Shown: positions 4,484-33,521, numbered from the stretch's first letter. The stretch: 61,846 nucleotides of DNA from a virus (IMGVR_UViG_3300030329_003801:1-61846), one strand, 5' to 3'. Notes: a model not told the origin generated them from the sequence alone. Program-made: numbers and translations.

Positions 4484-4550
4484 GATAATTATAATAGCTT
4501 ATGCAGTTAGTATTACAGGTGGATTAATTATAATAGCTTTAGATTTGTAG
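4476..4550 (+). CDS. Single-TM micropeptide (24 aa)
   Basis: MIEIIIIAYAVSITGGLIIIALDL*; fills gap, overlaps upstream stop. Confidence 0.45.
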   Translation: MIEIIIIAYAVSITGGLIIIALDL

Positions 4551-7894: not shown

Positions 7895-8126
7895 AATATG
7901 GTTTATGCTAATATTAGTATCTATACCCAACGCACCTTCAATTAAGTACAATGGATTTATATATCCAGATGAGGAAGAGTGCCAAGTAGCAAGATATGAA
8001 TTTTATGAGGCATATAATAATAAATCTACAAAATATAAATCAGTAACAGCAGTAGATGCGTACTGTATAGAATTTGAAAGTTTTCCAATACAAGGATTAA
8101 AAAGATTAAACGAGACAGGAGTATAA
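7887..8126 (+). CDS. Small exported protein with two Cys
   Basis: MIKIWFMLILVS..EEEC..AYC; overlaps upstream gene. Confidence 0.65.
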   Translation: MIKIWFMLILVSIPNAPSIKYNGFIYPDEEECQVARYEFYEAYNNKSTKYKSVTAVDAYCIEFESFPIQGLKRLNETGV

Positions 8127-8129
8127 AAA

Positions 8130-9188: not shown

Positions 9189-9190
9189 TT

Positions 9191-13649: not shown

Positions 13650-15458
13650 ATGGCACCTGTATCAAATACAATTACATCTACTACATCAGCAACACAAGAT
13701 CTTGAAGTCTTTAAGAATTATCCAACAGAAAAAAATAATAATTTATTACAACAAAAGTATGGAAGCCAAGACGAATTTCTTAAACAAATTCAAGCTGAAG
13801 GATATGCGGAAGGATTTAAAGGACAAGAACTAAATCTTCCTGCAACGGAAATGTTGGACGAAGCTGCAATAAATAAATTTCTTTATCCATCAGGAATAAA
13901 TAATATTGATGATACGCATGTTATGTCTAAAGAACATTCTGATGAAATTATGAATCAATCAACATTAAAATCAATTGTTCCAGCAGTAACGACTGGAGGA
14001 GGTCAACAAAGAGCAATTGATAAAACAATGTTAATTAGACTTGATGATGGTCTTACATATTATCCACACGAAATGAGTGAAAGAGGATATAGTGATAGCC
14101 AAATAACAAAAGGTCTTAGACAGGGATTTTTAACTGACAATCCAGAAAATATGGAAGTTTTCAATAACTTTATGAATAATCAAGGTATAAGTTCTGTTGA
14201 AACTTCAAAACAAATACCACAAAATAAATTTGATTGGGAAGAAAGAAGTATAGGTATTCCTACAAAAAAAACAGAAAAAAAACCAAAAACTTTTTTAGGT
14301 TATGAATTAAAAGAACACGAACCTTATAAAAGAAAAATTGATCCAATCAAGCCATTTGTAGATTATTCAAACACTATTGAGAGAGATAGAGAACGACTTG
14401 CAGCTGTTGGAATGGATTCAGATATATTGATTCCTTTAATGGAAAAAGATTCTGGTGGTTATATGTCACAATGGGGATTACCGATTGTTAATCCAGATGG
14501 AAAAATGTGGTTCTATGATTCAGACAAGAAAGCAAAAATTCCTTTTACAGATCAAAATATATTAGCAGACCGAAGAGTTAAAGAGCTTCTTAAAAGAGAA
14601 GAAGTAATGAAACAAGCTGAGTTAAGTAATCCGGGTGATCAAAATGCTGCTGAAGTAGCATTAGATGATTATATTCTTAAACAAGAAAAGAATAAATTTA
14701 ATAAAAAAAATTACGTTGATGATGAAGGTTTACATCTTACACTTAATGTAGGACAGGAAGCCAAGACGGGTGAACCCGGTAGTGGAAGAGCTACAGATAC
14801 AGGCGGTCTTCTTGAAGTTCAAAGAAGAAAAATGGATCAGCTTATGAAAAAATCTGAAACAGGATTAAATAAAGAAGATAAAAAAGACTTAACAGATACT
14901 TTAAAAGGCCAAGGCGTTGATACTACAGGTATGAATGATAAAGCTCTATTAGCTGCAACTATTGGGTTTGGTATTATGGCATCTAAACGATCAGATATGT
15001 TAGGAGCTATTGGTGAAGGTGGACTTGCAGGATTAAAACTTGCTGCTGATATTAAAGATAAGCAAGGAGGAAAATCCTCTGATATTCAAATGATTACCGT
15101 TAAGAACGATGAAGGCGAAAATGTTATTGTTCGGTATAACAAGAAAAAAGGCACATACGAAGAAACGGGATTAAAATCTGGAGCAAGTACATCAAATAGC
15201 ACATTACAAAAAATACAAACATTATCAAAAATTGCTAATGTTCCAGAAGATGTAGTAGCAACTTTTATTTTAAATAGTTTAACAGAATCGAAAGGAAAAC
15301 CAAGAGAAGATCAAATTACAACAATGATGTCTATTCTTTCAAGAACAATTTCGGGAATGACCGAAGACCCTGAAAAGTTGAGAAATATAGCAGAAAAAAT
15401 TGTTGATGAAAATATGAAAAGTGGATCAAATTTTAAAGAATCAGATATAGGATTATAA
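13650..15458 (+). CDS. Putative internal virion/ejection protein
   Basis: 602 aa; ALLAATIGFGIMAS..LGAIGEGGLAGL segment; lies between ejection genes; GGAG RBS. Confidence 0.6.
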   Translation: MAPVSNTITSTTSATQDLEVFKNYPTEKNNNLLQQKYGSQDEFLKQIQAEGYAEGFKGQELNLPATEMLDEAAINKFLYPSGINNIDDTHVMSKEHSDEIMNQSTLKSIVPAVTTGGGQQRAIDKTMLIRLDDGLTYYPHEMSERGYSDSQITKGLRQGFLTDNPENMEVFNNFMNNQGISSVETSKQIPQNKFDWEERSIGIPTKKTEKKPKTFLGYELKEHEPYKRKIDPIKPFVDYSNTIERDRERLAAVGMDSDILIPLMEKDSGGYMSQWGLPIVNPDGKMWFYDSDKKAKIPFTDQNILADRRVKELLKREEVMKQAELSNPGDQNAAEVALDDYILKQEKNKFNKKNYVDDEGLHLTLNVGQEAKTGEPGSGRATDTGGLLEVQRRKMDQLMKKSETGLNKEDKKDLTDTLKGQGVDTTGMNDKALLAATIGFGIMASKRSDMLGAIGEGGLAGLKLAADIKDKQGGKSSDIQMITVKNDEGENVIVRYNKKKGTYEETGLKSGASTSNSTLQKIQTLSKIANVPEDVVATFILNSLTESKGKPREDQITTMMSILSRTISGMTEDPEKLRNIAEKIVDENMKSGSNFKESDIGL

Positions 15459-15461
15459 AAA

Positions 15462-18400
15462 ATGACACCCTTAGAGCAGCTAAGATCCAATAAGCCAGAT
15501 TTGTACGGCATAGCAGAATCCCAACTAACGGATATGCTATGGGATCAACTCGGCAAAGACAAATACGCAGACGAAAGTATATTCCGTGAATACTTGACGA
15601 CAGATACGGGACTGTTTGATAAGTCAAGATTAAAAACAATCACACCTACAATTGAATCAGAACAACAAGTCCTTCCAGAAGAGAAGGTAGACGAAGAGGT
15701 ATCACCATTTCGTCAAAAAGAATATTGGGTAGATGTTCTTCAGAATATAGCCCAACAAGCTGTTACAACAACTGGACTGACAATGCAGGGGATGTCTGGC
15801 CTTAAAGCATTTTCAGAATTACCAGAAGAAAAACAGAAACTTGTTTTTGCTGAAGATACGGCACTTTACAAAACTTTTAAAAAACTTGGTTTATTAAATG
15901 AGGATGACAAACTAGATCTTTCTTGGTTGCCATCGGAAGATCGTGAAATAGGATATTTAAGAGAAAAATCAACAGAAATATTAGCTAATCCTGATTCTTA
16001 TACTGATGATAGAATAGAATGGGCAAAAAATACACAACAATTTTTACAGGATAGAGAAGAAGCAAGAGTTGATATAAAGGACAGACCGTTATATAAAGCT
16101 GGTGAAAAAGTTCAAGAATGGGGTAAAGAAGCTATTCCTATTGACCGTGAAAAATGGTCACAAAATTATCTTGCTAATCTTTTATTAGATACAACAGGAG
16201 TAATTGGTTCAACGCTTCCGTTCATTGCAACAGGCATGGTTGGATCTTCAATTAGAGTTGGTGCGGTAACACTTGCTCTTCCAGCAACAATGTCTGTAGG
16301 TGCAGGAGAGGCTGTAGAAAGAGCTTATGATTATCAGGAGCAAGACGGAGTAAGAAACGAAGATGATATTGCCATTGCGGCTATTCTTGGTACAGTTCCG
16401 GGTGCTGTTGATTACATGCCTGTTGGAATATTATTAAATAGATTTAATCATTATAGACCGGAAGGTAAAAAATTTATAAGAAGATTTCTTGAAGCGGCTG
16501 TTTCTCAAGGATTGTGGGAAGGTACTACAGAGGAAGTTCAACAATTTCTGCAAAATATGATTGCTCAAGATTATAATGCTAATCAAAAACTTAGTGAAAA
16601 TCTTGGAAAACAATTCCTTCCAGCTTTTCTTGGTGGTGGAATTATGGGTGGTATTGGTATGTCAGGAAAGACTACCCCTACAGATCCAAAAGATGAAATT
16701 AAAGAAAAAGTAATTGACAAAGAAATAGGCGATAAACCAACAGAAGAACAAAAGGAAAAAGCTGATGAAGGCAGTCCTGATGAAGTAAAAAAAGATTTTT
16801 CTCCTGATGGATTTCCACCTGTTGGAGCAACAAACATTGATGTTAATGAAGCTGGTGTTGACATAGGAAACGGAAAAATTATTTCTTATGACCGTGATCC
16901 AGAAGATGATTCCATGCATGTTAAAATGGAGATGGAAGATGGGACAATTATTGATCGTCCTGTTGATGAAATTGACATGGTGTGGAATGATAGACCAGAT
17001 GTAGATCTTCCTGAAGGAGCACCTTTAACAAAAGCACAACAAGAACAGTATGATGCGGCTGAACCCGGAACGATTGTTACTATTACTAATGAAGATGGTC
17101 AAGTTGTTCAGTATATGGAAAAACCTGCTGTTGCTGAAGAAGAGGTAATACCAGATGAGGAAATAACAGAAGAACAGGCGGCACAAAGAGATAATCATCA
17201 ACAGGCAGATAGTTCTTTTTGGACAACTCTTTATACTATTCAGCAAAAATTAGGTGATGAGTCTGCTGAAAGATACTTTAATGAAGCTATAAAAAAAATG
17301 AAGTTTCCTCCTGTAGATAGGGAAACAGGGGAAAGACAAACTTGGGAAGATGTAAAGGATGATTTAAGAAAAAATCCAGACAAATATGCTGGTTATGGAG
17401 GCACAACTGTTGCTAATCAGGAATGGCTTAACATGCCTGTGGGAAATGCTCGAAGTTTTTTTAAAGCACATAAATGGATACACACGCAGGCTGGTGAGGA
17501 AATGCTTCCCATTCCGGAAACGGATGAGGAATTTTTCCAGCAACAAGAAGAAAAAAGAAAACCTAAAGAAGAAGTAGCATCAGTTGAAGAAGAGGTAACT
17601 CCTGTTGAAGAAGTAAAAGAACCAAAAACAAAAGTATTAACTGATAATATTAAAAAATTAGGTGACTGGAATAATGTATTTGAAGCTAATAAAGAAAATG
17701 AAGATGCAGTAAATCAATTAACAAATTTTAATCTTGAAGATTTAATAGAATATGAAAATAATGTTACTGTATTAAATCAAGCTAAAAATAAATTATATAA
17801 AACTAAAGCACTTGGCGATAATACTGTTGCAAAAAGCAATATTCAATTAGTTCAAAATAGAATAGCTGAACTAGAAGGTAGACCAGTAGAAGAAGTAACT
17901 CCTATTGTAAAACCTGTTGAAGAAAAGAAACCAAAAGAATTTATAGATGAAATATTATCTAGTAAAGAAACAGAAGAAAAAGTTGAGGAAAAAGTAGAAG
18001 ATAAAACAACTGGTGCAGAAGAATTAGCTGGAATGAATAATGAGCAAATTGGTTCTTTAATAGATGATATTGTTAGTGAAGTTGAAGTAGAAGAAAAAGC
18101 ACCAGTTGAAAAGAAAGTTGTAGAAGAAAAAGTTAAGGAAATAGTTGAAGAAGCAAAACCTACACAACAAATATCTGCTAAATATTTAAAATCAAAAGAA
18201 CCAATAAAATTAAAAAGTCAAAAAGCAAGAGGAGAGGAATTAGCGTCTGTTTTTTTAGATGCCGTTCCTTTAAATAAAAATGCAATAATTGAAGAATTAA
18301 AATCTATAGGTATTGATAAAGTATTAAATTTAAAACAAATTCAAGATAATATAAATAATATTAAAAAACAAGCATTAGATTTAAATATTATAAATGATAT

Positions 18401-21400
18401 AAATATTTCAAATGAAGAATTATTTGCTGAAATTATATTAAAAAATAATGCAGAGTCCATAAAAGCAAATAAAAGAAGAGTAGAAGAAGCTGAAAAAATA
18501 GGTATAACAAAAGAGGAATTGAAAAAAGAAAGTTTTGCTACTTTAGCAAAATTAGCAGATAATAATTATGTAAAGAATATACAATCAGATCAAGGAATTA
18601 CTGCTTTTTTAGTAAGATTTTTTAATAATGCTAAAGCATTAAGTTTAGGATACAAAAGAGGTAGTGGTGAAAGATTAGCAAATGATTTTGAAATGTTACT
18701 TTATCATGTTCCTTTTATTGATACTAAAAATTATCAAGAAGTTTTAGCAGTACAAAATTTAAGAGCAAATTACAAATTAAAAAATAATAAACAAATATTT
18801 AATGATTTAGTTAATAAAAAAATAACTGCATCAGATATAGTAAAACAAGTAGAAGCTCCTTCTGAAATTAAGGTAGAGGGATATACAAAACCTTTTAATA
18901 ATATAGGACAATGGAATAAAAGTGCAATTTCAAAATCAGATATTGTACATGATAAAACACCTACTGGTAAACCGAAAGGAAATGTAACTAACCGAAAAAA
19001 TGCTTATGAGACATTATTAGATCTTATTAATACAGATATATCTGTACTCATTAATAAAGAAAATAATGTTGGATTACTTAATGTAACAAAAGGCGTATTG
19101 GAGAAAAATGCATATATAAATTATTCTGAAACTGGTTTAAGTCAATATTTTATTGGATCTGAAGGTATCACTCCTAAAAATGTAAAATCAAATTTAGAAT
19201 CCGTTAATGATAGAATTGCAGAAATAAAAGGGGAAAAGAAACCTGTAGCAGAAGAAAAACCTAAAGTAGAATTTGTTCCTCTTAAAAATGCTAAACCGGA
19301 AGAGTATTTTGATTTGTTTGAAACAGATCCAAAAAAATACGATAAAAATATTCCTGAAATGTTTACGATTAATTATAATAAGAATGAATCTGTTAGGGAG
19401 GAATCATATACTGATCTAATTTTAATACCTGTTGATGATGCGTTGAAATTAATAAATACACCTAAAGCAGAATCTTTAGTTGAAGGAAGGGTTGATTCCA
19501 TAAAAAAAGATATAGTTTCTGGAAGAAAAATAACAAAACTTACTACTGCTTTGTATATGGGAATTGAATCTGAACATTTGAAAAAAGCAGGTGGAAATCT
19601 ACCGAATATAATTGAACCTGATTCATCCGGTTCTATGATTAGAGGTGGTTCTGAAGGAAGACATATTGTCCACGCATTTAAGGAATTAGGCATAGATAAA
19701 GTTCCATTTGTATTAACTGCCGATGGTAAACCCGGTGAGTTTAAATTTAGACATAAGAATAATTGGAGGCCAAATTATGTTATTGTTAATGAAACTCAAC
19801 CAACTTTTCCAGATAAAAAAGTTTCTACAAAAAATTGGATTTATTATTCTGATCTAGTAGAAGAAAAACCTAAAGTAGAACTCTTTAAAGAAAAAGAAGT
19901 TGTTTCTGAAAAGGGAGGTATTTGGAGAAGAAAAGGCCTATATTATGTAAACAGTGACTATAAAAATTGGAGAGTTCATAAGGTTGGTTTTACCCCTCTT
20001 AATCCTTGGCAGTTTGATTATCTTACCCCTGAAGGAAACTGGCAATTTATTGGAACTTATTCAAAGGTTGGAATATCACAAGGATGGATTGAAAGATTTG
20101 CTTTAGCATTTGAACAAGATCCCTCAAAGTTTCTAGGAAGTAGAATGGGAACTTTCCAAAACAAAAGTGGAGAAGGAACCAAAGAAAGAGAATTTACATT
20201 TGCTTTTAACACAAAATGGACTAAGGATCTTTTTGAAAAATTAAATCCAAAATTAAATAAGGAATTAGGTGATCAATTTCTTCCTAGTGGTAATAAGATA
20301 GGAGAATATTACATATATATTACGCCAAGAAAATACGAGGAAAGACCAGAACTTGATATAGCTACTCGTGATTTTTATAAAAGATTATATAAAGAAGATT
20401 GGGTTCAAGGAACGAATATTAAAGGTGAGTATGATATAATATTTACAAAAGAAAAACCTAAAGTAGAAACTCCTAAACCTATATTCTCTCTTTCTGGAAC
20501 TAAACCAGCAACTACGCCTGATAATTTAACAACGATAGATTATAAGACAGAAATTGTACCATTAAGTCAACTTATTACATCAGACAATAAAAATAAATTT
20601 CCTCAAGTATTACAGCCAAGGGAAAGAGATTCTAAGCCATCTGAAATGCAGGTGGAACTTATTGCTAAAAATCCAAAAGCAGACTGGCTTGGTGAAGAAA
20701 ATAGAACTGATCAAGGTGCTCCTATTGTTGGCCCAGATAATGTTGTTGAAAGTGGTAACGGTAGGGTAATGGGTTTAAGATTATCCTCCAAACAATTTCC
20801 TACAGAATTTCAAAAATATTTACAGGACATAGCAGTAGATATTGGAACAGATACAGTAGAACAAAAGAAAATTGCTGATACTTTAGAAAAGAAATTTAAC
20901 GAAGGAGATCCTTCTATTGTTGTAAGAAGAAGGGTAACTTCTTTTTCTGAACAAGAAAGAATTAAGTTTACACAAGATTCTAATTCATCAAGTCTTTTAA
21001 CTAAATCACCTGCTGAACAAGCTAGGATTGATGCCTCTAGAATGCCAGAGGGACTTATTGATTTGTATGAAGGTGGATTGGTAGCACTGGAAAAAAATCG
21101 TGAATTTGTAAGAGGATTCTATAATATTATTCCTAAAAATGAACAACGAGAAATATTAGATGATGCTGGTGATCTAACACAAAATGGAGTTAGAAGAATT
21201 GAAAATTCTTTAATTATAAGGGCTTTTGGAGATATTAGTTTATTTAACAGAATAGCAGAATCAACTACTCCAGAGGTTAAGGCATTAAGTGAATCATTCT
21301 TAATGGCAGCACCTAGATGGATTAAGTTAAGAGAAAGTGTAGAAAGTGGCGTAATACCTAAAGAATTTGATTTAACTTATCATGTTATTGATGCTGTTAA

Positions 21401-24400
21401 TCAAATAAGACAAGCAAGAAAAAAGAACATGCCTTTTTATTCTTTTTTAAATCAATATTCATTTCTGGATACAGGAGAAATACATCCTTATACAAAATTG
21501 TTGTCTACGGTATTTTATCGTGGTAAAGATTATAAGAATTTAGAAACTGCGGACAATATATCTAAAGTCCTATCCCAATACGCCGATAGTTCACGAAAAT
21601 TTGATGATCTTTTTTTAAACGAACAAACCCCTGCACAAATATTAGAGCGTTCAATATTGAATGTTAAAAAAGAAATTTTACCAATTACGGAGGAAGAATT
21701 AAATGGCTACAGAACAAAAGCAGAACAAGTTTCCCCAACAAGACCAGAATCCGATGCAGTATTTCTGGGCGAAAAAGGGGAAAGAAACATTGACTTTGGT
21801 AATGTCAGAGAAACAGGAGACTCTCTCCGAGCAGGAGTACCTGACGTTGCTGAAAGACCGAGTCCAGAACTTAGCAGAGAAGAGCAAGAACGTTTGGGAG
21901 AATCTTCAGAGCGTATTACCGAATCAGGAACTGGCCCTATTAACAGACTGGCAAGAGAGCAAGAGTCTAGGGAATCTGGGAGAAGACCTGATAACGCACA
22001 GCCTGAACAGTTGGATGAATTTACCTCTGGAGCTGAACGAGGTAAAGTTTCCGATACAAGTGAATCAAGACAACAATCTGAAAGAGATTTACAATACGAC
22101 CAACTTGCTAGAGTGGCTTCATCAAAGCTATCCCAAGTATTAGATAAAGTAACAATTAGAACAAAAGAAGGTTCTAGAAAACTTACTCCAATAGAAAAAG
22201 AAAATGTTATTGATGCTTTAACTTTATCAAGAGATTCTTATGTAGAAAAATTTACTGATGAAGGTTTAGGTGGCATTGTTGATATTAAAGGTAGAGTAAA
22301 CTTTACTGTACCTGATTTTGTTAAAAACTTTGAATTAACTGTTGAAGAATTATCATTACCTCCTGAATTAGCTAAAGTTAGAGATAATATTGTTAAAGAT
22401 TTTGCTCTTCCCTATGGGGTAGAAGAATTTGATAGATCTGAAAAAATAAAAGTTAGTAATTGGATTAATATATTTGATCAAAGACTTCCTGAAGATAATA
22501 ATTTTACTCGTGAATATTTAAACTCCAACATTGTTAATACAGCTATTAATAATAAATTTGGGAATCTTCCTAATCCAAGAAAATATTTTTTACAAAAATC
22601 AAATGATTCATTAAAGAATCTTATTAAAGCATTAAAAGAAATTTCAGAAGAATATAAAAGAAAACCTCCCGTTCCTCTTAGTGCAGATGTATCTCCTGAT
22701 GTTAAAAACAAAGATTATAAAAAAGCTAAACCTTTTTTTGAAAAATCTTGGGCTGATGCAAAAGATGCTGGTCTAGGAATAAATGAATGGTTAAGACAAA
22801 TAATAGCAGATCTAAAAAAAGCATTTGGAAAAGTTAAAGAACATCTTAATATAGCTTTATCACATTTAAAAAGATTTGCACAAAGTCTAAGACAAGGTTC
22901 TCTTACTAATACAACTAAAGAAGGAGAGCAAAGTAAATATCAATTAAAACATACGCCTATAAGTAAAGCTAAAAAAATGGAAACATTTACTCCTATTGAT
23001 TTAGATGGACATCTAAAAAAAGGAATGAATGATCTTAGAAAACGAAGAGGAGATATTGATAGATTTGTAACAACAGAGCTTGATTACAAAGATGAAAATG
23101 AAATGGTCAATAACCTTGGAGCTGAACAGGTTGAAGCTGTTGCTCTTGCAATTGATCAATTAGATAGTGGAAAAGGATTTGTTCTTGGTGATCAAACAGG
23201 TGTAGGAAAAGGTCGTGTAGTTGCAGCAATGCTACGATGGTCTAAATTAAGAGGAAAGAATGCAGTATTTGTAACGCAGAAACCTGCTTTATATGCTGAT
23301 ATGATTCGTGACTTAAATGATATTGGTGAAAATATTCAGGATATAAAAATACTTCCAACAAATAATGGTTTAAATATTGATGTTAGTGATGTACCAACAT
23401 TTGGGGAAATTGTCACACCAAGTAAAAAAGAACATGAACAAGAATTAGATAGATTAACAAAATTAGGTAATATGGAAGAATACGATTATGTATTTACTAC
23501 CTATGACCAAATGAATAGAATTGGTGGTAAAATAGATACTCGTCATCAATTCTTAGAAACAATTGCAGAAAATTCTATATTTATTCTTGATGAAAGTCAC
23601 ACAGGTGGAGGACAAGGAATAGGTAAGTTTTCTTCTGTTCCTTTTGATTCAGTTGGAATGACACGAGCTGATTTTCTAAGAGATTTGTTAAGAAGATCTC
23701 AAGGTGCTATGTATTCATCAGCAACATGGGCAAAGAATCCAAAGGTTATGGATTTATATTTAAATACCGATATTCAAGATTCTATTCCAGATGCAGAAGA
23801 GTTTATTGATACTATGATAAAAGGAGGTCTTCCTTTACAATCTGTTGTATCTAATATGTTAGCTGAAACTGGTCAATATAGAAGAGTGGAAAAAAGTTTT
23901 CAAGGTATAAGATTTAATACTGTTGAAATTAATATAGATAAAAAAGGTTTAACTGAAACAGCGAATAATCTTTCTTCTGTTTATCAAGACCTTGTTTCTT
24001 TAGATAGAAAAATTTCAGCTATTACCAGAGCATTAATAAATATTGATCCTGTATTACAAGAAGCAAGAAAAAAAGGGGCTAAAGTTCAAATAACACCAAG
24101 TAATTTTAAATCTCAAATGCATTATATTTCTGGACAGTTAATGACTGCTATGAAAATAAAAGAAGTAGGTGAGATGGCAATTAAAGAACACAAAGCTGGA
24201 AGAAAGCCAATGATTGTTTTATCAAGAACAATGGAGGCTTTTCTTACGCAATATGCTGCTGAAAATAATCTTAAATCAGGAGATGTCATTAACTTAACAT
24301 ACAATGATCTCTTACTTAAATATTTAAAACGATTAAAACAATTTAAAGTAAAAATAGAAAAGCAAAAAGTTGCAAGTATAGGAACACATCAAGCAAAAAT

Positions 24401-27400
24401 TGTTAATAGAGAACCTGTCTTTATATTAAACAATTCTTCTATAGAAAATATTGCAGAAAGTCTTGGTTATGGAGATATTATAGGAGAATTTAATGCATTA
24501 GAACAAAAAATAAAATCTTTAGATTTTAAAGATTTAAGTGTTAAACCTATAGATGATCTTATTGTTACTTTAGAAAATGCTGGGATAAAAGTTAGGGAAC
24601 TAACTGGTCGTGGTATGACTATTACTAAAGATAACAAATTAAAATCTAGAGCTAATAGCCCATCTGTTATTCGCAATGGTGTTAATGAATTTAATGCTGG
24701 AGAAGTAAATGCTCTTGTAATGAATAGAACAGCAGGAACAGGATTATCTATGCATTCTAGTGAATCATTTGCTGATCAAAAACAACGTCATATGATTGTC
24801 TTAGAAGCAGAACCTAATGTTACAGATTTTGTTCAAATTTTAGGTAGAATAAATAGAACTGGACAAGTTATTGTTCCTCAGTATTCATTGTTTAATACAA
24901 GTCATCCAGCTGAAAAAAGAATTGCGGCAATGCTGGAAAGAAAAATGGCATCTCTTAATGCTTCAACAAGTGGATCAATTAAAAATGATTATAGCGTTAA
25001 GGGTATTGTAGACTTTATGAATGCGGCTGGTGATAAAGCCGTAAGGGAATTTTTGCAATCTAATGCAAGTATGAGATCTTTGTTTACTAATTCAGATAAA
25101 GAATTAGAAGAAATAACAGGTATAGCTGATGCTGTAGCTCGTGGATTATTAATAATGGATCCAGCAACAGCTAATAAATTTTATGATTTTGTTTTAAAAA
25201 GATATACAGAAATTAAAGAAGAAGAAACAGGACTTGGTATTAATAAGAATAATATTATTATTATGCCAGATACTCAAGCTGTAACAACCGAACAACAAGA
25301 ATTACATGATGGATTATCTGATGGAAGCCCTTTTCAAAAGCCAGTATATCTTGATAATATTACTATGAAAAAAGTTGTTAAACCTTATACTGTAGCTCAA
25401 TTAAGAAAGAAAATTGAAGATGTTCTTGAAGGAAAAAATATTCAACAATTTTCAGCAAATGAAATTGCAGAAACAAGAAAAGTTTTTGAAGAAGCTATTA
25501 ATGAAGTAAAAACAAAATTTCAAACAGAGACTGAGGATATTGTAGATCCAAAGAAAAAAACTGAAAAAGAACATCGATCAGCAAAAGAAATAAAAAGATT
25601 AGAAACACTCTGGACTGCAATAGAATCACATATTGCTAAATATCCAATTGGTTCTACTATTCAAATAAGAGTTGGAAAAGAAGAAGAGTCTCCTGTTTAT
25701 GACGGAATGGTTATTAATAGAAAAAGAGATACTTCAAAGAATCCTGCAACATCAGGAGCAATACAAATAACACTTGCTTTGGCAAATGGAGAAACACAGC
25801 AAGTAACTGTTGCTCTTTCTCGTTTTATTAAGAATGATGGAACAAGCGGTGAGTCTATATTACGATCAGTTGAATCATCTAAAGTACAAGAATTATTTAC
25901 ATCAGGACAAAAAGAAACAACTGAAGAAAGACATCTTATAACAGGAAATCTTTTATTGGGATCAAGTTTAATTAAAGGTGGAAACTTTGTTAACATTCAG
26001 AAAAGAGTAGGTGATACAGCAGAATTTGATCAGGTGATTGGTATTCTTATGCCTAAAACATTTGATGTTAAAAAAGCTATTGAAAATATGCCTTTTAAAT
26101 TTGGTAGTGAAGAGGAAGTATATCAGTATTTTGTTGAAGCTGGAAAAAATGCTAAAGTTAAAAATTACAGAGGCGATATTGAAATATTTGCCGCTCCGTC
26201 TTTACCCAATGTAGCTTTCATAAGAGTTAAGAAAAGTGCAAAACTTATATTAGAAAATGAAGCTATAACAAATAGACTTCAAAATGGATGGAAGAAAATG
26301 ACTGGGGAATTTAGTCATGCAGGAAGAATTTCTCTCGTGGAAAATGCACCAAATAAAAGTAGCTTGTATGATGTTCTACAGCATATGCATGAACTAGGAA
26401 TTAAATTTCAAACAGTAACTAATCGTGAAGCTGCTCAAAGTGCAAAAGATAATGTTAGACCAAACAATGCTGGAGAAGGCGGTAGTGTTGGTGCAATGAA
26501 AACACCAAAAGATCTAATTGACTCTATAAAGGATGAAACAAATGTTAGCCGTAATTCCCTGTTCAAGAGAATAAGAAACAGTATGACTTCAATGGCACAA
26601 TCTGTCAATGAAAGATACAGTGCAAGAAAGAATCCTAGAGTTGGAGAAACAAGACAGTTTAATAGCAGAACTAATGAACATGCTGATAATATTATTATGC
26701 CAGAGGTTAATGATAGTATTAATATTAAAACAGGCATATTCCCAGCAATAACTACTGGTATGTTAAAAAAAATATTACCACCATTTGTTGTTGCTAAAAG
26801 ATTTGCAGATAAAACTATTTTTGATTTTGTTAGAAAAGCAATTGCAGCACAGGCAATGATAAGAAAAGTTGGATATAGATTAGAGGATGATTTTTTAAGT
26901 ATTAAAAGAAAATACAAGAAAGCAGATTTTAATAAAGTTGTTGATATATTGTGGTCTGGTGATTCAGCAGGAAGAATATTTACCGCCAAAGAATTAAAAG
27001 AAGGATTTACATTTACAAAAGAGGAAAAGGCAGAGTTAAAAAAACAAGGACACAGTGCAAAAGAAATAAACAGAGCTGAAAAAGAAAGTAAGTTTACTGA
27101 CGATGAAGTTGCAATGTACTTGGAAATGAGAAAACTATTTGAAAAAATAGGAAGGTATATTGATAAACATAACTTTAATATGGTTCCTTTCATAAGAAGA
27201 ATGAAAACACTTCGCAAGAAACAAATGGAATCACAGGTTAATCCAGAATTTCTTAATGATTTAAGAACATTGTTTGCAAGAAAGTTTTTATTGGAAAGAC
27301 AATTTAGAAATAACATTGGTAATCCAGAATTATTACGACAAGAACTTCAATCAATTGATGAACAAATATTATCTATTCCTTTAATAAAGTATAGTGATGC

Positions 27401-29933
27401 AGCATTTGAAAAATTTAATAGTTCTGTTGGTCAATATGTTTTAGAAGAAAGAAAATTAATGAGCATATCTGTTAGAAAAAAAGTTGGATATGTTCCTCAT
27501 ATATTCTTTGGATCATTTAGATTAAAAGTATTAAAAGGAATAGATAAAGAATCTGGTCAGGAAATTTGGGAAGATCTTATTGTTCCTGAAACATCGAAAG
27601 ATTTGGCTAAAAAATTAAAAGCACAAGGTAGATCAGAAAAACAAATACAAGATATTATTAATGATCTTGAATCAAGTAAGCATACTTTATTTTACAACAC
27701 AAAAGATGAAGCTCTCAAGGCAGCACAAAGATATGTAAAGGAAAATCCGACAGGTACTGTTAAGATTGCACCTGTTAATATAAATTATATGTTTGATGAC
27801 AGGACTGTGTTGAATGACAGGGAGTACAAAAACATTATGGAGGGAATTACTTCTTCTTTATCAGAAGAATTAAAACCTGAAGATGTTGCTGTTGTTGGTG
27901 AAAGAGCAAAAGAAACAATGAAAAGAAGAGGCAGACGAAGAATACCAACTTTTTCTATGAAAAGAAAAGGTATTCCGGGTTATGAAAAAAATCTTAATCA
28001 AGTTTTTAAAATGTTTGCGGCATCCGTTTCTCGTTATAGATATATGGATGAATTAAAATATGATCATGTTAATCTTATGGAAAGAAAAGGCTGGGGGGAA
28101 GTTAGTGAAATTACTGATCCTGATGGAAGAAAAATAGCTGAATGGCTTCAAACTTATTGGAAAGATTTAAATAATGAACAACAAGGAGGAGAACATACTG
28201 TAGATAGACTTTTGGATGAAATGCAAAAAACTTTTGCTGGTAATCCAAAACTATGGGCTACATTTGCAATTTCTTCACCTGTTGTTGCTCTTGGTTTGGG
28301 TTCTACTTTAGGTACAGCAGGACTTGCTGGTCTTGGTGGATACCTAATGTATAAAGCAATGAAGACGCAAAAATTTAAATCTCGTGCTGTAACAGGACAA
28401 ATGCTTTCAATTTCAGCTCATATGAAACTCGGTGCTTTCTTTAATATATCTTCAGCATTTGTTAACTTATCTCAGTTAGCCAATGTATATACAAAACATG
28501 GTGGAACAAATACAACAGTTGCACTTAGAAGAGCAACAGCAGCATTATTTAGAATGGCTAGAAGAGACTTTGAGACAATACTTAAAAATCCAGAAAAGTA
28601 TAGTACAGCAAAAGTTAATGCGGCAAGAGATGCATTAATGTTAAAAAAATATGCAGATGTAAAATCAGAATATTTTTATACTGATGAAAATCCTGATATA
28701 TTTGCAGAAAGAAGTAAGCTCGGAGAATTTTCAATGATGTGGTTTCAGACGGCTGAGACAATTAACCGTTCAGTTTCATTCTTTGCTGGATTTCATGAAT
28801 CAACAAAAGCAGGAAAAAATAGAAAACAATCTATAGAAGCAGGTAAAAAATCTATTCAAGAACAACAATTTAGTTATGATAATTCAGCAAAACCAGAGTT
28901 ATTAAGAAGCACTCTACTTCGTGTTCCACTTCAATTTAAAAACTGGATGATGCAACAAATCGCTTTTATGGGTGGTCTTAGAGGATGGGAATGGCCTCGT
29001 TTCTTAGCTCTTTATTTTTTACTAGCTGGTGCATTAGGAAATACATTCCTTGCTTTAGCAGATCATATACTTAGATTGTTTGGATTTTCTCCAATGCAAT
29101 ACATCAAAGAATGGTCTGTAGAAATGGCAGGTAAAGGAGAAACAGAAGCAATGGTTGGTCAAATGATTGCTCATGGATTGCCGTCAGTAGTGTCATCTAC
29201 GGGATGGGGGCCGGGAATAAATCTTTCATCAAGAGTTGGATTAGGAGATAAAGGTCTTCCAACAGAATTAAGAGATTTTCAAGGGCCACTTTTAAGTACT
29301 TTTCTTAATATGTATAAATTAAGTTCAGAAGGTGCATCCATTGGAGATCATATTGCAAACATTACACCAGCAGGTAAAGTATTTAAAGGTGTTGAAGCAA
29401 TGGCAGGAGGAATGCCTTTGGAATCTGTGTTTACAGATTTTCCAGAGTTTAGTCAGAATTTTATGGCTAATTGGCGTGATGAACAAGAAGCAACAGTTGT
29501 TGATGCTTATCGTAATAGAAATATTAAGATAGAAGGATTTAGTGACGGAGATCTTCTACGAATGATGTTAGGATTCCAGACAACAAAAGAAGCACAGATT
29601 TCGGATTTTGTTGGAGGAATAAAAAAACAAAATGAACTTCGTTCAGAGGAAATGAATTTTGTTAAAACAAAAATAAATAATGCCGTAAGAAAATATAAGA
29701 ATAATTCTGATAAACTTGGAAAAGAGTTACAAAAGATCATTGAAGAAGCAATGGAAGACGGTGTCAATATTACTTATCAAGGTATTAAGAGAATGATTAT
29801 TGATGCTCACCTTTCCCTGATGGACAGGGAGTTCAAAAATGCTCCTAAACATCAAAAGGAATGGATATTAAACAATATTCAGAACATGGAAAACCTGTAC
29901 GGTTCTGATGCAATAGGGAGTTATATAGACTAA
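15462..29933 (+). CDS. Giant polyvalent ejection protein (ParB-like + DdrB-like ParB + Strawberry-notch SF2 helicase)
   Basis: 4823 aa. EGRH..AFKELG..KVP (~aa1400); GAPIV..DNVVESGNGR (~aa1760); GFVLGDQTGVGKGR Walker A (~aa2575), FILDESH, SSATWAK, ELTGR, GTGLSMH, VQILGRINRTGQ; hydrophobic segments near both ends. Confidence 0.85.
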   Translation: MTPLEQLRSNKPDLYGIAESQLTDMLWDQLGKDKYADESIFREYLTTDTGLFDKSRLKTITPTIESEQQVLPEEKVDEEVSPFRQKEYWVDVLQNIAQQAVTTTGLTMQGMSGLKAFSELPEEKQKLVFAEDTALYKTFKKLGLLNEDDKLDLSWLPSEDREIGYLREKSTEILANPDSYTDDRIEWAKNTQQFLQDREEARVDIKDRPLYKAGEKVQEWGKEAIPIDREKWSQNYLANLLLDTTGVIGSTLPFIATGMVGSSIRVGAVTLALPATMSVGAGEAVERAYDYQEQDGVRNEDDIAIAAILGTVPGAVDYMPVGILLNRFNHYRPEGKKFIRRFLEAAVSQGLWEGTTEEVQQFLQNMIAQDYNANQKLSENLGKQFLPAFLGGGIMGGIGMSGKTTPTDPKDEIKEKVIDKEIGDKPTEEQKEKADEGSPDEVKKDFSPDGFPPVGATNIDVNEAGVDIGNGKIISYDRDPEDDSMHVKMEMEDGTIIDRPVDEIDMVWNDRPDVDLPEGAPLTKAQQEQYDAAEPGTIVTITNEDGQVVQYMEKPAVAEEEVIPDEEITEEQAAQRDNHQQADSSFWTTLYTIQQKLGDESAERYFNEAIKKMKFPPVDRETGERQTWEDVKDDLRKNPDKYAGYGGTTVANQEWLNMPVGNARSFFKAHKWIHTQAGEEMLPIPETDEEFFQQQEEKRKPKEEVASVEEEVTPVEEVKEPKTKVLTDNIKKLGDWNNVFEANKENEDAVNQLTNFNLEDLIEYENNVTVLNQAKNKLYKTKALGDNTVAKSNIQLVQNRIAELEGRPVEEVTPIVKPVEEKKPKEFIDEILSSKETEEKVEEKVEDKTTGAEELAGMNNEQIGSLIDDIVSEVEVEEKAPVEKKVVEEKVKEIVEEAKPTQQISAKYLKSKEPIKLKSQKARGEELASVFLDAVPLNKNAIIEELKSIGIDKVLNLKQIQDNINNIKKQALDLNIINDINISNEELFAEIILKNNAESIKANKRRVEEAEKIGITKEELKKESFATLAKLADNNYVKNIQSDQGITAFLVRFFNNAKALSLGYKRGSGERLANDFEMLLYHVPFIDTKNYQEVLAVQNLRANYKLKNNKQIFNDLVNKKITASDIVKQVEAPSEIKVEGYTKPFNNIGQWNKSAISKSDIVHDKTPTGKPKGNVTNRKNAYETLLDLINTDISVLINKENNVGLLNVTKGVLEKNAYINYSETGLSQYFIGSEGITPKNVKSNLESVNDRIAEIKGEKKPVAEEKPKVEFVPLKNAKPEEYFDLFETDPKKYDKNIPEMFTINYNKNESVREESYTDLILIPVDDALKLINTPKAESLVEGRVDSIKKDIVSGRKITKLTTALYMGIESEHLKKAGGNLPNIIEPDSSGSMIRGGSEGRHIVHAFKELGIDKVPFVLTADGKPGEFKFRHKNNWRPNYVIVNETQPTFPDKKVSTKNWIYYSDLVEEKPKVELFKEKEVVSEKGGIWRRKGLYYVNSDYKNWRVHKVGFTPLNPWQFDYLTPEGNWQFIGTYSKVGISQGWIERFALAFEQDPSKFLGSRMGTFQNKSGEGTKEREFTFAFNTKWTKDLFEKLNPKLNKELGDQFLPSGNKIGEYYIYITPRKYEERPELDIATRDFYKRLYKEDWVQGTNIKGEYDIIFTKEKPKVETPKPIFSLSGTKPATTPDNLTTIDYKTEIVPLSQLITSDNKNKFPQVLQPRERDSKPSEMQVELIAKNPKADWLGEENRTDQGAPIVGPDNVVESGNGRVMGLRLSSKQFPTEFQKYLQDIAVDIGTDTVEQKKIADTLEKKFNEGDPSIVVRRRVTSFSEQERIKFTQDSNSSSLLTKSPAEQARIDASRMPEGLIDLYEGGLVALEKNREFVRGFYNIIPKNEQREILDDAGDLTQNGVRRIENSLIIRAFGDISLFNRIAESTTPEVKALSESFLMAAPRWIKLRESVESGVIPKEFDLTYHVIDAVNQIRQARKKNMPFYSFLNQYSFLDTGEIHPYTKLLSTVFYRGKDYKNLETADNISKVLSQYADSSRKFDDLFLNEQTPAQILERSILNVKKEILPITEEELNGYRTKAEQVSPTRPESDAVFLGEKGERNIDFGNVRETGDSLRAGVPDVAERPSPELSREEQERLGESSERITESGTGPINRLAREQESRESGRRPDNAQPEQLDEFTSGAERGKVSDTSESRQQSERDLQYDQLARVASSKLSQVLDKVTIRTKEGSRKLTPIEKENVIDALTLSRDSYVEKFTDEGLGGIVDIKGRVNFTVPDFVKNFELTVEELSLPPELAKVRDNIVKDFALPYGVEEFDRSEKIKVSNWINIFDQRLPEDNNFTREYLNSNIVNTAINNKFGNLPNPRKYFLQKSNDSLKNLIKALKEISEEYKRKPPVPLSADVSPDVKNKDYKKAKPFFEKSWADAKDAGLGINEWLRQIIADLKKAFGKVKEHLNIALSHLKRFAQSLRQGSLTNTTKEGEQSKYQLKHTPISKAKKMETFTPIDLDGHLKKGMNDLRKRRGDIDRFVTTELDYKDENEMVNNLGAEQVEAVALAIDQLDSGKGFVLGDQTGVGKGRVVAAMLRWSKLRGKNAVFVTQKPALYADMIRDLNDIGENIQDIKILPTNNGLNIDVSDVPTFGEIVTPSKKEHEQELDRLTKLGNMEEYDYVFTTYDQMNRIGGKIDTRHQFLETIAENSIFILDESHTGGGQGIGKFSSVPFDSVGMTRADFLRDLLRRSQGAMYSSATWAKNPKVMDLYLNTDIQDSIPDAEEFIDTMIKGGLPLQSVVSNMLAETGQYRRVEKSFQGIRFNTVEINIDKKGLTETANNLSSVYQDLVSLDRKISAITRALINIDPVLQEARKKGAKVQITPSNFKSQMHYISGQLMTAMKIKEVGEMAIKEHKAGRKPMIVLSRTMEAFLTQYAAENNLKSGDVINLTYNDLLLKYLKRLKQFKVKIEKQKVASIGTHQAKIVNREPVFILNNSSIENIAESLGYGDIIGEFNALEQKIKSLDFKDLSVKPIDDLIVTLENAGIKVRELTGRGMTITKDNKLKSRANSPSVIRNGVNEFNAGEVNALVMNRTAGTGLSMHSSESFADQKQRHMIVLEAEPNVTDFVQILGRINRTGQVIVPQYSLFNTSHPAEKRIAAMLERKMASLNASTSGSIKNDYSVKGIVDFMNAAGDKAVREFLQSNASMRSLFTNSDKELEEITGIADAVARGLLIMDPATANKFYDFVLKRYTEIKEEETGLGINKNNIIIMPDTQAVTTEQQELHDGLSDGSPFQKPVYLDNITMKKVVKPYTVAQLRKKIEDVLEGKNIQQFSANEIAETRKVFEEAINEVKTKFQTETEDIVDPKKKTEKEHRSAKEIKRLETLWTAIESHIAKYPIGSTIQIRVGKEEESPVYDGMVINRKRDTSKNPATSGAIQITLALANGETQQVTVALSRFIKNDGTSGESILRSVESSKVQELFTSGQKETTEERHLITGNLLLGSSLIKGGNFVNIQKRVGDTAEFDQVIGILMPKTFDVKKAIENMPFKFGSEEEVYQYFVEAGKNAKVKNYRGDIEIFAAPSLPNVAFIRVKKSAKLILENEAITNRLQNGWKKMTGEFSHAGRISLVENAPNKSSLYDVLQHMHELGIKFQTVTNREAAQSAKDNVRPNNAGEGGSVGAMKTPKDLIDSIKDETNVSRNSLFKRIRNSMTSMAQSVNERYSARKNPRVGETRQFNSRTNEHADNIIMPEVNDSINIKTGIFPAITTGMLKKILPPFVVAKRFADKTIFDFVRKAIAAQAMIRKVGYRLEDDFLSIKRKYKKADFNKVVDILWSGDSAGRIFTAKELKEGFTFTKEEKAELKKQGHSAKEINRAEKESKFTDDEVAMYLEMRKLFEKIGRYIDKHNFNMVPFIRRMKTLRKKQMESQVNPEFLNDLRTLFARKFLLERQFRNNIGNPELLRQELQSIDEQILSIPLIKYSDAAFEKFNSSVGQYVLEERKLMSISVRKKVGYVPHIFFGSFRLKVLKGIDKESGQEIWEDLIVPETSKDLAKKLKAQGRSEKQIQDIINDLESSKHTLFYNTKDEALKAAQRYVKENPTGTVKIAPVNINYMFDDRTVLNDREYKNIMEGITSSLSEELKPEDVAVVGERAKETMKRRGRRRIPTFSMKRKGIPGYEKNLNQVFKMFAASVSRYRYMDELKYDHVNLMERKGWGEVSEITDPDGRKIAEWLQTYWKDLNNEQQGGEHTVDRLLDEMQKTFAGNPKLWATFAISSPVVALGLGSTLGTAGLAGLGGYLMYKAMKTQKFKSRAVTGQMLSISAHMKLGAFFNISSAFVNLSQLANVYTKHGGTNTTVALRRATAALFRMARRDFETILKNPEKYSTAKVNAARDALMLKKYADVKSEYFYTDENPDIFAERSKLGEFSMMWFQTAETINRSVSFFAGFHESTKAGKNRKQSIEAGKKSIQEQQFSYDNSAKPELLRSTLLRVPLQFKNWMMQQIAFMGGLRGWEWPRFLALYFLLAGALGNTFLALADHILRLFGFSPMQYIKEWSVEMAGKGETEAMVGQMIAHGLPSVVSSTGWGPGINLSSRVGLGDKGLPTELRDFQGPLLSTFLNMYKLSSEGASIGDHIANITPAGKVFKGVEAMAGGMPLESVFTDFPEFSQNFMANWRDEQEATVVDAYRNRNIKIEGFSDGDLLRMMLGFQTTKEAQISDFVGGIKKQNELRSEEMNFVKTKINNAVRKYKNNSDKLGKELQKIIEEAMEDGVNITYQGIKRMIIDAHLSLMDREFKNAPKHQKEWILNNIQNMENLYGSDAIGSYID
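19250..20468 (+). repeat. Three direct repeats (A)GAAGAAAAACCTAAAGTAGAA-type inside giant gene
   Basis: Identical 22-mer at 19250-19271 and 19859-19880; 20-nt core AAGAAAAACCTAAAGTAGAA at 20449-20468; all encode EKPKVE. Confidence 0.9.
21703..22143 (+). CDS. Nested +1-frame gene inside giant ORF (146 aa, unknown function)
   Basis: GGAGG at 21689-21693, 9 nt before ATG; open for 146 codons; host frame here is a disordered R/E/S/G linker with raised GC. Confidence 0.6.
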   Translation: MATEQKQNKFPQQDQNPMQYFWAKKGKETLTLVMSEKQETLSEQEYLTLLKDRVQNLAEKSKNVWENLQSVLPNQELALLTDWQESKSLGNLGEDLITHSLNSWMNLPLELNEVKFPIQVNQDNNLKEIYNTTNLLEWLHQSYPKY

Positions 29934-30127: not shown

Positions 30128-30181
30128 CTCTTGACAACTACATGTAGTAGAACATATGTAGAACACAAACAATATATAGAT

Positions 30182-30889
30182 ATGAAATCATACAAGAAAA
30201 TTTTTGTGATTTCAGATTTGCATGCACCATACTCGCACCCCGATAGTCTGGAGTTCATAAGCAAAATTAATAAGAAATACTCTCCCGATTGTGTAGTAAA
30301 TATGGGAGATGAGCTGGATTTTTCAGCATCAAGTTATCACGAATCATCTACAGAATTATATAATCCTTCTAAAGAGTTAGAAGAAGGTAGAAAAATACTA
30401 AAAAAGCTGGAAAAAATGTTTCCTTCCATGCATTTATTACATTCTAATCATGGCAGTATGGCTTTTAGAAAAGCAAATACAGCAGGATTAGCACAAAGTT
30501 TATTAAAACCTTATCACGAAATGATAGGAGTTAGTAATAAATGGACATGGCATGATACCCTAACATTAAATACACCAATGGGTAATGTATATTTTGTTCA
30601 CCAGCAATCATCAAATGTTTTACAGGTTTGTGCTGCAGTATCCATGAATGTGGTTCAAGCACACTACCATACGAAAGCGGTCATAAATTACATAAGTAGC
30701 CCAGAGAAATTAATGTGGGCAATGAATGTAGGATGTATGATTGATAAGAATCATCTCGCTTTTAAATATAGCAGGGTCATAGTCAAAAGACCGATATTAT
30801 CCTGTGCAGTTATTACAAATGGAATACCACAATTAGTACCTATGGTTTTAAAAAGAAATGGTAGATGGGACAAAAAAGTTCATCTATGA
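30182..30889 (+). CDS. Calcineurin-like metallophosphoesterase
   Basis: VISDLHAP, NMGDELD, SNH, AHYH motifs; the track's TTG start at 30131 looks more like a TTGACA -35 box. Confidence 0.8.
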   Translation: MKSYKKIFVISDLHAPYSHPDSLEFISKINKKYSPDCVVNMGDELDFSASSYHESSTELYNPSKELEEGRKILKKLEKMFPSMHLLHSNHGSMAFRKANTAGLAQSLLKPYHEMIGVSNKWTWHDTLTLNTPMGNVYFVHQQSSNVLQVCAAVSMNVVQAHYHTKAVINYISSPEKLMWAMNVGCMIDKNHLAFKYSRVIVKRPILSCAVITNGIPQLVPMVLKRNGRWDKKVHL

Positions 30890-33357: not shown

Positions 33358-33521
33358 TGTCAAGAAGAAGAAAACCGTCAAGGGCTTCATCTAGAAGAAG
33401 AGTTAAAGTGGAAGAAGGAAAAGCTATGCGTACACCTTTGTCTTCAAGAAAGATTAGTGACATTGTTAAAGATATTAAGAAACTTAAAAAGAAAAAGAAA
33501 AAGAAAAGAGGGAAAAAATAA
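33357..33521 (+). CDS. Arg/Lys-rich small protein (54 aa)
   Basis: MSRRRKPSRASSRRR...KKKKKKKRGKK*; TAATG overlaps at both ends. Confidence 0.65.
   Translation: MSRRRKPSRASSRRRVKVEEGKAMRTPLSSRKISDIVKDIKKLKKKKKKKRGKK

Follow-up and report, generated by a model that had tools for sequence, protein, structure and literature searches.

The viral contig IMGVR_UViG_3300030329_003801 (positions 1-61846; this whole stretch is called the window) makes up, with its 61,846 bp, a complete assembly by itself. A single gene in it, at 15462-29933 on the + strand, encodes a cysteine-free protein of 4823 amino acids (aa), hereafter P0001 or the giant. We lean towards reading the giant as the largest internal-virion (ejection) protein of a podovirus of the HTVC023P type, in which a delivery chassis would carry a cargo for methylation-independent protection of DNA. 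Judged from its sequence and from analogous proteins, the giant is likely to be packed in the virion and ejected; that anti-defence is its main role is an even call. The reading is built on the architecture, homologies, avoidance of cysteine, synteny and intact catalytic motifs observed in this protein. An initial annotation of the window had described one 14.5-kb open reading frame (ORF) filling about 23% of it, which holds: the gene takes up 14472 of 61846 bases (23.4%). The ORF and its blocks are as follows.

15462-29933 (+): giant ORF, 4823 aa, no cysteine, ATG start, no internal stop
15462-17021 (+): conserved N-terminal module (N-module), aa 1-520, 33-45% identity in all six homologues
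17022-20474 (+): variable K/E-rich linker with repeat-like units, aa 521-1671
19416-19715 (+): second ParB/Srx-like signature, unconfirmed, aa 1319-1418, noticed by eye, Atlas score 0.87
20475-21491 (+): DdrB-like ParB domain with helical extension, aa 1672-2010, Pfam PF18763
21492-23081 (+): polar stretch, aa ~2084-2249, probably disordered, then pre-helicase block, aa 2102-2540
23082-25421 (+): Strawberry-notch-type SF2 ATPase/translocase by its AAA_34 and Helicase_C_4 matches, aa 2541-3320
25422-27101 (+): post-helicase blocks, aa 3321-3880, without assigned family
27102-29930 (+): C-terminal 'chassis' module (C-module), aa 3881-4823, helical

This layout comes from a local profile map over 157 stored proteins and from comparison with six homologues of the giant (3618-4469 aa, each without cysteine), with which P0001 makes up the family P0001-P0007. 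One homologue, P0002, is 82% identical to P0001 over aa 1672-4823 without a break, and five more, all full-length, come from other contigs. Even at E<=1, a Pfam search with the giant cut into 15 overlapping tiles of 600 aa left about 85% of the chain without a match.

The cargo that could be recognised consists of a DdrB-type ParB domain and a double-stranded DNA (dsDNA) translocase of Strawberry-notch (Sno) type. The ddrB-ParB family (PF18763) matches aa 1690-1802 (nt 20529-20867) with an E-value of 1.9e-22, above the curated cut-off, and the VESGNGR signature stands at aa 1762-1768. AAA_34 matches aa 2550-2828 (E 1.4e-19, 70.6 bits vs a cut-off of 27) and Helicase_C_4 matches aa 3031-3204 (E 1.2e-19, 71.5 bits vs a cut-off of 30.5). 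Walker A (2577-2585), DESH (2709-2713), motif III (2752-2757) and motif VI (3125-3135) were located in the helicase, so that motifs I, II, III and VI are intact, most of their residues being unchanged across the alignment of the seven family members; both domains, ParB and ATPase, have intact catalytic motifs. The initial annotation had recognised the DdrB-like ParB by its ESGNGR motif and the Strawberry-notch SF2 motif set, and had called the protein polyvalent; Pfam and the motifs agree on the domains, and their presence in one chain on the name. The helicase region is 28% identical to gp3 of Bacteroides phage BS-TP4. The ParB domain is found in P0001-P0003 alone among the seven family members, and from this distribution appears to be an accessory, optional domain.

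The absence of a methylase, also claimed at the outset, was upheld by motif, Pfam-tile and profile tests. There is no [DNS]PP[YFW] motif anywhere in the giant, and no methylase family among its 15 Pfam tiles at E<=1, a tool with which P1 DarB and the giant of phage Y7 do score. A profile of the NPPF region of relatives found no match in P0001, P0002 or P0004-P0007 and non-significant hits in P0003 (iE >= 1.5). It matched the DarB methylase region weakly (iE 0.012), and its reach is limited, as it missed the Y7 and JC1 methylases. The NPPF motif is present in 23 of the 32 stored giants of >=2000 aa with a Sno-type block, and in at least 21 of these 23 carriers ~290-560 aa separate it from the mapped helicase downstream. 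The notion that Sno-type giants are generally methylase-free, which Pfam negatives had suggested, is thus wrong; Pfam missed the NPPF regions in the six such giants scanned, and a Pfam negative alone is a weak test for this methylase. The nine Sno-block giants without NPPF are P0001-P0007, P0013 and P0065, the last two being stored as sequences that begin at the helicase, so that their upstream part cannot be judged. The missing methylase therefore looks like a feature of the clade. Catalysis by C5-methylases needs a cysteine, and since the clade has none, a methylase of this kind is excluded as well. Retention of the helicase in a clade without methylase implies that it has a role of its own, and, together with the optional ParB, argues that DNA translocation, the predicted activity of the Sno-type ATPase, and not methylation, is the core activity.

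The presumed chassis has two parts, the N-module with its Gly-rich hydrophobic segments and a helical C-module of ~940 aa that also carries hydrophobic segments (aa 4274-4295 and 4514-4542) as well as the invariant motif RVPLQFKNW (aa 4487-4495). An exhaustive HMMER search with aa 3650-4823 returned 435 cluster representatives at E<=1e-3, of which 159 remain at E<=1e-10 and 81 at E<=1e-30. Carriers of the C-module span ~170 to 5856 aa, and its C2 block ends <=250 aa from the protein end in 143 of 144. No Pfam family covers the module, whether in the tiles of the giant at E<=1 or in forty shorter members, 36 of which have no Pfam hit at all. By contrast, Pfam found a varied cargo in 11 giants: SLT, Peptidase_M15, InPase, LPD1, LPD3, ART-PolyVal, a Zeta-toxin-type kinase, ddrB-ParB, Sno or SNF2 helicases, methylases and an intein. 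Among relatives, the peptidoglycan hydrolase domains SLT and M15 sit at the N-ends. From these comparisons the C-module appears to be the constant part of the family while the cargo changes. PHROG families that have profiles of giant length and end in the C-module are phrog_11358 (31 of 36 alignment members), phrog_10089 'DarB-like antirestriction' (28 of 36), 22591, 37402 and 30335.

AlphaFold2 gave a confident, mostly helical model of the C-module from a 36-sequence alignment (pLDDT 80.5, pTM 0.67). Foldseek found 50 matches to this model at E<=1e-3 in BFVD, a collection of predicted viral structures. Some come from the C-termini of phage giants that bear the names 'large polyvalent protein-associated domain', 'DNA methylase' or 'chromatin remodeling ATPase'; others are proteins of ~1400-1500 aa from cultured podoviruses, among them 'Internal virion protein D' of the roseophages CRP-5 (7e-8) and CRP-4 (5e-6), a name that is annotation only. 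A family profile (A1) run on the sequences of the PDB gave two irrelevant weak rows only.

In the N-module, the hydrophobic segments fall at aa 237-402 (nt 16170-16667). Its N2 block is present in 22 of the 157 stored proteins, near their N-termini, and aa 336-410 of the giant match positions 499-583 of the 4647 of phrog_10089 (E 1.9e-5). The ESM Atlas returned viral hypothetical proteins for this module, with LPD22 in 12% and LPD14 in 66% of two clusters, which are to be taken as leads only. The initial annotation had seen hydrophobic segments at both ends of the protein, in agreement with the Kyte-Doolittle (KD) clusters: with 19-aa windows, peaks >=1.0 number six at aa 237-402, four at aa 4274-4542 and three in the ~3870 aa between. 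The signal lies in this clustering and in the conservation of the end blocks, not in the number of windows, which totals 13 vs a mean of 23.5 in composition shuffles.

The strongest sequence-level sign that the giant may be ejected is its avoidance of cysteine. About 31 cysteines would be expected in its 4823 residues from the other 33 window ORFs of >=150 aa (64 Cys in 10037 residues, 0.64%) and there are none, although TGT and TGC are frequent in the two other frames of the gene (64 in one and 283 in the other). Cysteine is likewise missing from all six close homologues, from the giant of Pseudoalteromonas podophage vB_PalP_Y7, from gp01 of Klebsiella phage LASTA, from gp69 of Burkholderia phage JC1 and from gp15 and gp16 of T7. 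A total of 109 of 150 family representatives have no cysteine, and the whole set holds 126 in 314,902 residues (0.04%). In P0066 and P0075 the helicase block is split by an insertion of ~300 aa, which in P0066 matches a Pfam intein family (E 1.5e-7, under the curated cut-off). The insertion contains four of the five cysteines of P0066 and five of the six of P0075, the remaining one standing 3 and 7 residues before it; if the insertion is an intein, splicing would restore a cysteine-free protein in both cases. Suppression of cysteine as a signature of ejection is not a new idea and has already been published: the study of phage DEV describes it for the ejection operon of Schitoviridae, with 0.00075% cysteine in gp71 homologues vs 0.865% proteome-wide, and ties it to passage through the periplasm (PMC11445570).

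The genomic setting is consistent with this reading. Family scans identified TerL, portal, major capsid protein (MCP), a T7-type fibre N-terminus, a tail collar, Erf and a DnaD-like loader on the contig, and no sheath, tube or tape-measure protein among its ORFs; the contig is a podovirus-type (short-tailed) phage genome, of marine type. The pelagiphage HTVC023P matches 13 of 30 window ORFs, with identities of 60% for MCP, 43% for the portal, 41% for TerL, 39-46% for a 611-aa virion protein and 37% for a 370-aa ORF (gp81), which points to an HTVC023P-type backbone. From ~6.7 kb to ~31 kb the ORFs of the + strand abut or overlap, forming a tightly packed late operon that holds fibre, collar and virion proteins according to family matches. 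The giant is the last large gene of this + strand late block and occupies the slot of HTVC023P gp83 (868 aa, no cysteine), to which it has no detectable similarity. Two genes precede it directly.

12529-13641 (+): 370-aa ORF, matched along its entire length by phrog_4287 'DNA ejection protein' (E 1e-36), 37% identical to HTVC023P gp81
13650-15458 (+): 602-aa ORF without cysteine, with a conserved Gly-rich hydrophobic C-terminal segment, directly upstream of the giant

The 602-aa ORF is a candidate middle ejection protein. It has no family match in PHROG and Pfam scans, its AlphaFold2 model is unusable (pLDDT 47.1), and the identical protein is recorded from 13 contigs. A complex prediction for aa 1-520 of the giant with the C-terminal half of this protein scored 0.22 vs a mark of 0.32, which is no evidence either way. 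The giant had initially been called the last gene of an ejection cluster. Its position stands, as the last large gene of the late operon, and the name of the cluster is something we infer from a single PHROG name (that of the 370-aa ORF), synteny and depletion of cysteine. The largest ejection proteins are usually matched as a class by size and synteny (PMC8954989), and the giant does follow smaller putative ejection proteins at the end of a structural operon. In HTVC023P, gp79, gp81, gp82 and gp83 (the last at 7992-10598) are cysteine-free and close the structural block, gp80 in between having 4 Cys; gp79/81/82/83 are a candidate ejection cassette, unannotated in the record.

By its homologies the giant is a new member of the 'DarB-like' giants among polyvalent phage proteins, a class that is known and has already been annotated. 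LASTA gp01 (4433 aa) has the same C-module (profile A2, E 5e-39); it stands at the end of a block whose genes are annotated 'internal virion protein' and 'virion structural protein'. It differs from the giant in carrying an NPPF methylase motif and a DEAH motif, the giant having a Sno-type helicase and no methylase. It also contains PLARFG at aa 3750, a literal motif absent from P0001 and from all 150 representatives; a literature search, judged by titles, found no paper on the PLxRFG domain. The 'DarB-like antirestriction protein' of vB_PalP_Y7 (4675 aa) shares the C-module (E 1e-36) and a DdrB-type ParB with the giant and differs from it by an Eco57I-type methylase, a ResIII/Helicase_C helicase and an ADP-ribosyltransferase. 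Y7, of which a literature search found no mention, has no other gene in common with the window (0 of 30 ORFs). Giants of the LASTA and Y7 kind share with the one described here a module of ~450-940 aa at the extreme C-end, and are likewise the last large gene of a virion module, claiming between about a fifth and a quarter of the genome; the methylase-helicase dyad that marks them is lacking in the present protein. A distant family member, P0093, matched 22 phage records annotated 'DarB-like antirestriction', 'DNA methylase' or 'PLxRFG domain'; 21 of these are 57.4-63.8 kb long (the window being 61.8 kb and JC1 61.2 kb), a narrow size class that gives ~13-14 kb to one gene.

Proof of presence in virions exists for an analogue. 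Gp69 of the Bcep22-type phage JC1 (12124-25671; 4515 aa) fills 22.1% of a 61.2-kb podovirus genome and, like the giant, ends the virion module after small virion proteins; it was identified with 51 unique peptides by mass spectrometry of CsCl-purified virions (PMC9144972). In phrog_10089, to which either end of P0001 has a weak match, gp69 is the top member; it also matches PHROG families annotated 'DNA methyltransferase'. Among the 'DarB-like' giants as a whole, two or more C-terminal modules occur that do not align with each other, one of P0001/Y7/LASTA type (phrog_11358) and one of JC1 type. Phrog_14770, which belongs to the JC1-type C-end, also matches the helicase of P0001, so cargo and chassis recombine.

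The polyvalent class was described by Iyer, Burroughs, Anand, de Souza and Aravind in 2017 as phage or plasmid proteins that unite domains of disparate biochemical activity in one chain (PMC5512222), and ddrB-ParB with AAA_34/Helicase_C_4 fits that description. The repertoire and its late or virion context recur here: PF18763 is named for the class, and relatives of the giant carry LPD1, LPD3, InPase and ART-PolyVal. The same paper places DdrB-like ParB beside virion genes and proposes injection with the DNA, mentions a Sno-like SWI2/SNF2 ATPase 'in a few instances', and treats the methylase-helicase dyad as the rule, a dyad that is broken in the giant. Its main text does not contain the words 'cysteine', 'gp16' or 'tape measure' and uses 'membrane' and 'hydrophobic' on other matters; that text thus appears to describe neither the conserved hydrophobic C-module nor the avoidance of cysteine. 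The novelty of the giant had been overrated in the initial annotation, because RefSeq phages already hold giants annotated 'DarB-like antirestriction' and JC1 gp69 is proven in virions. The modest new points are the methylase-less clade with a Sno-type helicase, the optional ParB and the delineation of a very widespread C-terminal chassis.

Large ejected proteins of other podoviruses offer parallels. The virion RNA polymerases N4 gp50 and DEV gp71 (~3400-3500 aa) are cysteine-free third ejection proteins with membrane-associating segments towards the N-terminus, whose enzymatic beads, once refolded in the cytoplasm, work on the incoming DNA (PMC13434306, PMC11445570). The giant has no RNA polymerase and its operon is ordered differently, and we claim a likeness, not a relation by sequence. 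T7 gp16 (internal virion protein D) is the largest core/ejection protein of that phage and is cysteine-free, like the giant; the SLT domain annotated in it is also found in relatives of P0001. Homology to T7 gp16 was rejected as unsupported; a profile of 149 sequences scored 0.8, within the shuffled controls (111 of 200 reported, the top at 1.4).

Taken together, these data suggest the following scheme for the giant as an ejected protein. A few copies would be packed in the head. At infection the chain would leave through the tail largely unfolded and cross the periplasm, a passage that would explain the exclusion of cysteine. The end modules may settle within or at the inner membrane, where they would form part of the ejectosome, and the cargo would refold on the cytoplasmic side; from packaging to refolding, the scheme follows the model proposed for N4 gp50 (PMC13434306). 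The ATPase might then track along the entering phage dsDNA and displace or block host nucleases, with the ParB as an accessory that binds or nicks DNA, and the outcome would be methylation-independent protection in cis. Entry with the DNA, which the initial annotation had inferred, is plausible because of the total avoidance of cysteine, the C-module common to giants of podovirus virion modules, the synteny and the peptidoglycan hydrolases of relatives, and translocation independent of methylation is favoured because the helicase persists without a methylase and the ParB is optional.

Such a scheme would bear on a sizeable group of phages. In many podoviruses of ~60 kb, giant polyvalent proteins use a fifth or more of the coding capacity, and a conserved delivery chassis, found in 435 clusters and having neither a Pfam model nor a solved structure, can now be told apart from its variable cargo. 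Cultured carriers of the chassis (LASTA and Y7) are identified and open to experiment. If the chassis is a general device for protein injection, it would offer a natural system in which to study how chains of half a megadalton get through a phage tail.

Several observations weigh against an ejected carrier of this kind. The protein is known here from its sequence alone. No solved structure resembles the C-module: the best Foldseek E-value on the PDB is 0.086, and the best VIA-align match (Z 7.4) concerns generic helices and covers just model residues 1-130 or ~840-934. Hydrophobicity is weak too, with one window alone reaching KD 1.89 and fewer segments than in shuffles. The virion-proven JC1 gp69 has another C-end (phrog_14770, phrog_616, phrog_10691) and no similarity to profiles derived from P0001, its hhalign scores being equal to those of shuffles. 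With T7 gp16, hhalign gave a probability of 0.5%, a short QFK-type motif being aligned without significance. P1 DdrB, the named homologue of the ParB domain, is annotated 'unknown protein function'. The 370-aa 'DNA ejection protein' ORF also contains, at aa 303-343, a Peptidase_S74 intramolecular-chaperone domain, which is typical of fibres and spikes, so that its PHROG label may be wrong. Finally, the A2 profile found nothing in any of four TerL relatives (HTVC023P, 023Pt_psg01, DSL-LC04 and MW202426), the Y7 control being positive. Since the C-module is absent from these four, the giant is not a core gene of the backbone; and as Y7 shares only the giant with the window and the TerL relatives lack the module, the giant is exchanged between backbones.

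The main rival to a protective role is that of a genome-import motor, in which the Sno-type translocase, tethered at the membrane by the end modules, would pull the phage dsDNA in at the expense of ATP, anti-defence being secondary. It would thus take the part that transcription plays in T7 and N4. No cargo is more constant than SF2 helicases, Pfam domains of which occur in 10 of the 11 giants scanned, and the helicase is kept with intact motifs in the methylase-less clade, including those four of its seven members that have no ParB. Two precedents fit as well, the giant ejected protein of N4 staying membrane-anchored with its enzymatic part working on the entering DNA (PMC13434306) and SWI2/SNF2 ATPases translocating on dsDNA without unwinding (PMC5512222). 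The idea is weakened by HTVC023P, which fills the same slot with an 868-aa protein in which profiles detected no helicase, so that a motor is not required on this backbone, and by the many C-module proteins of 790-1700 aa without helicase. On this evidence we regard an import motor as unlikely. In its boldest form, to which we give similarly little credence, the C-module and N-module together would be an unrecognised, widespread ejectosome carrier of interchangeable cargo, and in the methylase-less clade the Sno-type ATPase, tethered at the inner membrane, would be an ATP-driven motor that reels in the genome and sweeps off nucleases. If this were true, it would add a third route of genome internalisation to the transcription-driven entry of T7 and N4.

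A strict Dar-type system, protecting incoming DNA in cis against type I restriction as P1 DarB and DdrB do, with the components fused, is another rival; the initial annotation had set its single-chain, methylase-free system beside the Dar proteins of P1. One argument for it is the ParB domain: P1 DdrB aa 45-300 is 29% identical to it (E 4e-28), and the two share the signatures LQPR(D/E)R (LQPRER in the giant), GAP(I/V) (GAPIV in the giant) and VESGNGR. Relatives are annotated 'DarB-like antirestriction', and in P1 both DdrB and DarB are head proteins, DarB acting in cis (PMC5512222). However, of the P1 Dar system the DdrB ParB domain alone is homologous. DarA, Hdf and Ulx reached best tblastn E-values of 0.27-0.76 against the window and DdrA gave none; DarB gave no tblastn hit at E<=1 and none with the helicase profile. 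DarB combines N6_Mtase/Eco57I with SNF2-rel_dom/ResIII/Helicase_C, an SF2 subfamily other than that of the Sno-type helicase, and the giant has no methylase. Nor does it contain an HExxH (zincin-like) peptidase motif, which P1 DdrB has at aa 872. P1 is, moreover, a myovirus with separate Dar proteins that hold some cysteine (9 in DarB, 2 in DdrB), in contrast to the single cysteine-free chain seen here, and 'antirestriction' on podovirus giants is annotation by similarity. The giant is thus no Dar system in a single chain, and we consider a strict Dar function quite improbable.

It is more doubtful still that the giant is not ejected at all and is expressed late to serve as a cytoplasmic protein or a structural one (scaffold, core or capsid-size element, host-takeover enzyme), its place in the late operon being incidental. 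The weak hydrophobic segments, a C-module model that resembles a soluble helical fold and the purely sequence-based knowledge of the protein would agree with such a role. It would leave unexplained the exclusion of cysteine throughout the family and the peptidoglycan hydrolase domains of relatives, and the analogue JC1 gp69 is in virions. That several genes were fused by an assembly or frame error, as the unusual length might suggest, can practically be dismissed in view of the unbroken alignment with P0002, the five further full-length homologues on other contigs, the identical upstream protein from 13 contigs and the genes of the same size in cultured phages.

Further details of the giant concern its less conserved or unassigned parts. 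Within the linker, none of the six homologues has a counterpart to aa ~1290-1670. The second ParB/Srx-like signature at aa 1319-1418 consists of a hydrophobic strand motif followed by a G-x-x-R helix and a 'KVPFVL'-type strand; the Atlas lead is ParB_N in 26% of one cluster, and the segment has no match in PDB, PHROGs or Pfam. The first post-helicase block (postH1) is found in 24 of the 157 stored proteins, vs 33 for the helicase block, and comes right after the helicase wherever both are mapped. Against phage records, tblastn with aa 1-1646 or aa 3447-4823 and megablast with the whole gene gave no match, and a related-locus search with the single giant protein returned just two short fragments, ~90% identical. 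An ATG ORF of 293 aa at 26435-27316 (-) lies antisense inside the giant gene and is probably a shadow frame of a strongly strand-biased coding sequence.

Elsewhere on the contig, G+C content is 27-39%, neither tRNA genes nor a terminal repeat were found, and the three tandem repeats are all trivial. Scans of 11-31 kb for promoters (75 vs 85.3 +/- 9.3 by chance) and terminators (12 vs 7.8 +/- 2.7 by chance) revealed nothing above chance. A metallophosphoesterase (phrog_221, E 7e-58) is encoded at 30131-30889 (+), ~200 bp 3' of the giant and past a 64-aa ORF, and a cysteine-free ORF of 500 aa without family match lies at 33521-35023 (+). A fibre-type protein at 143-661 (+) contains a C1q-like domain (E 3.8e-5), and the product of 2271-3548 (+) combines a match to the T7 tail-fibre N-terminus (E 3.2e-5, just under the Pfam cut-off) with an S74 chaperone domain; several receptor-binding proteins thus seem to be encoded.

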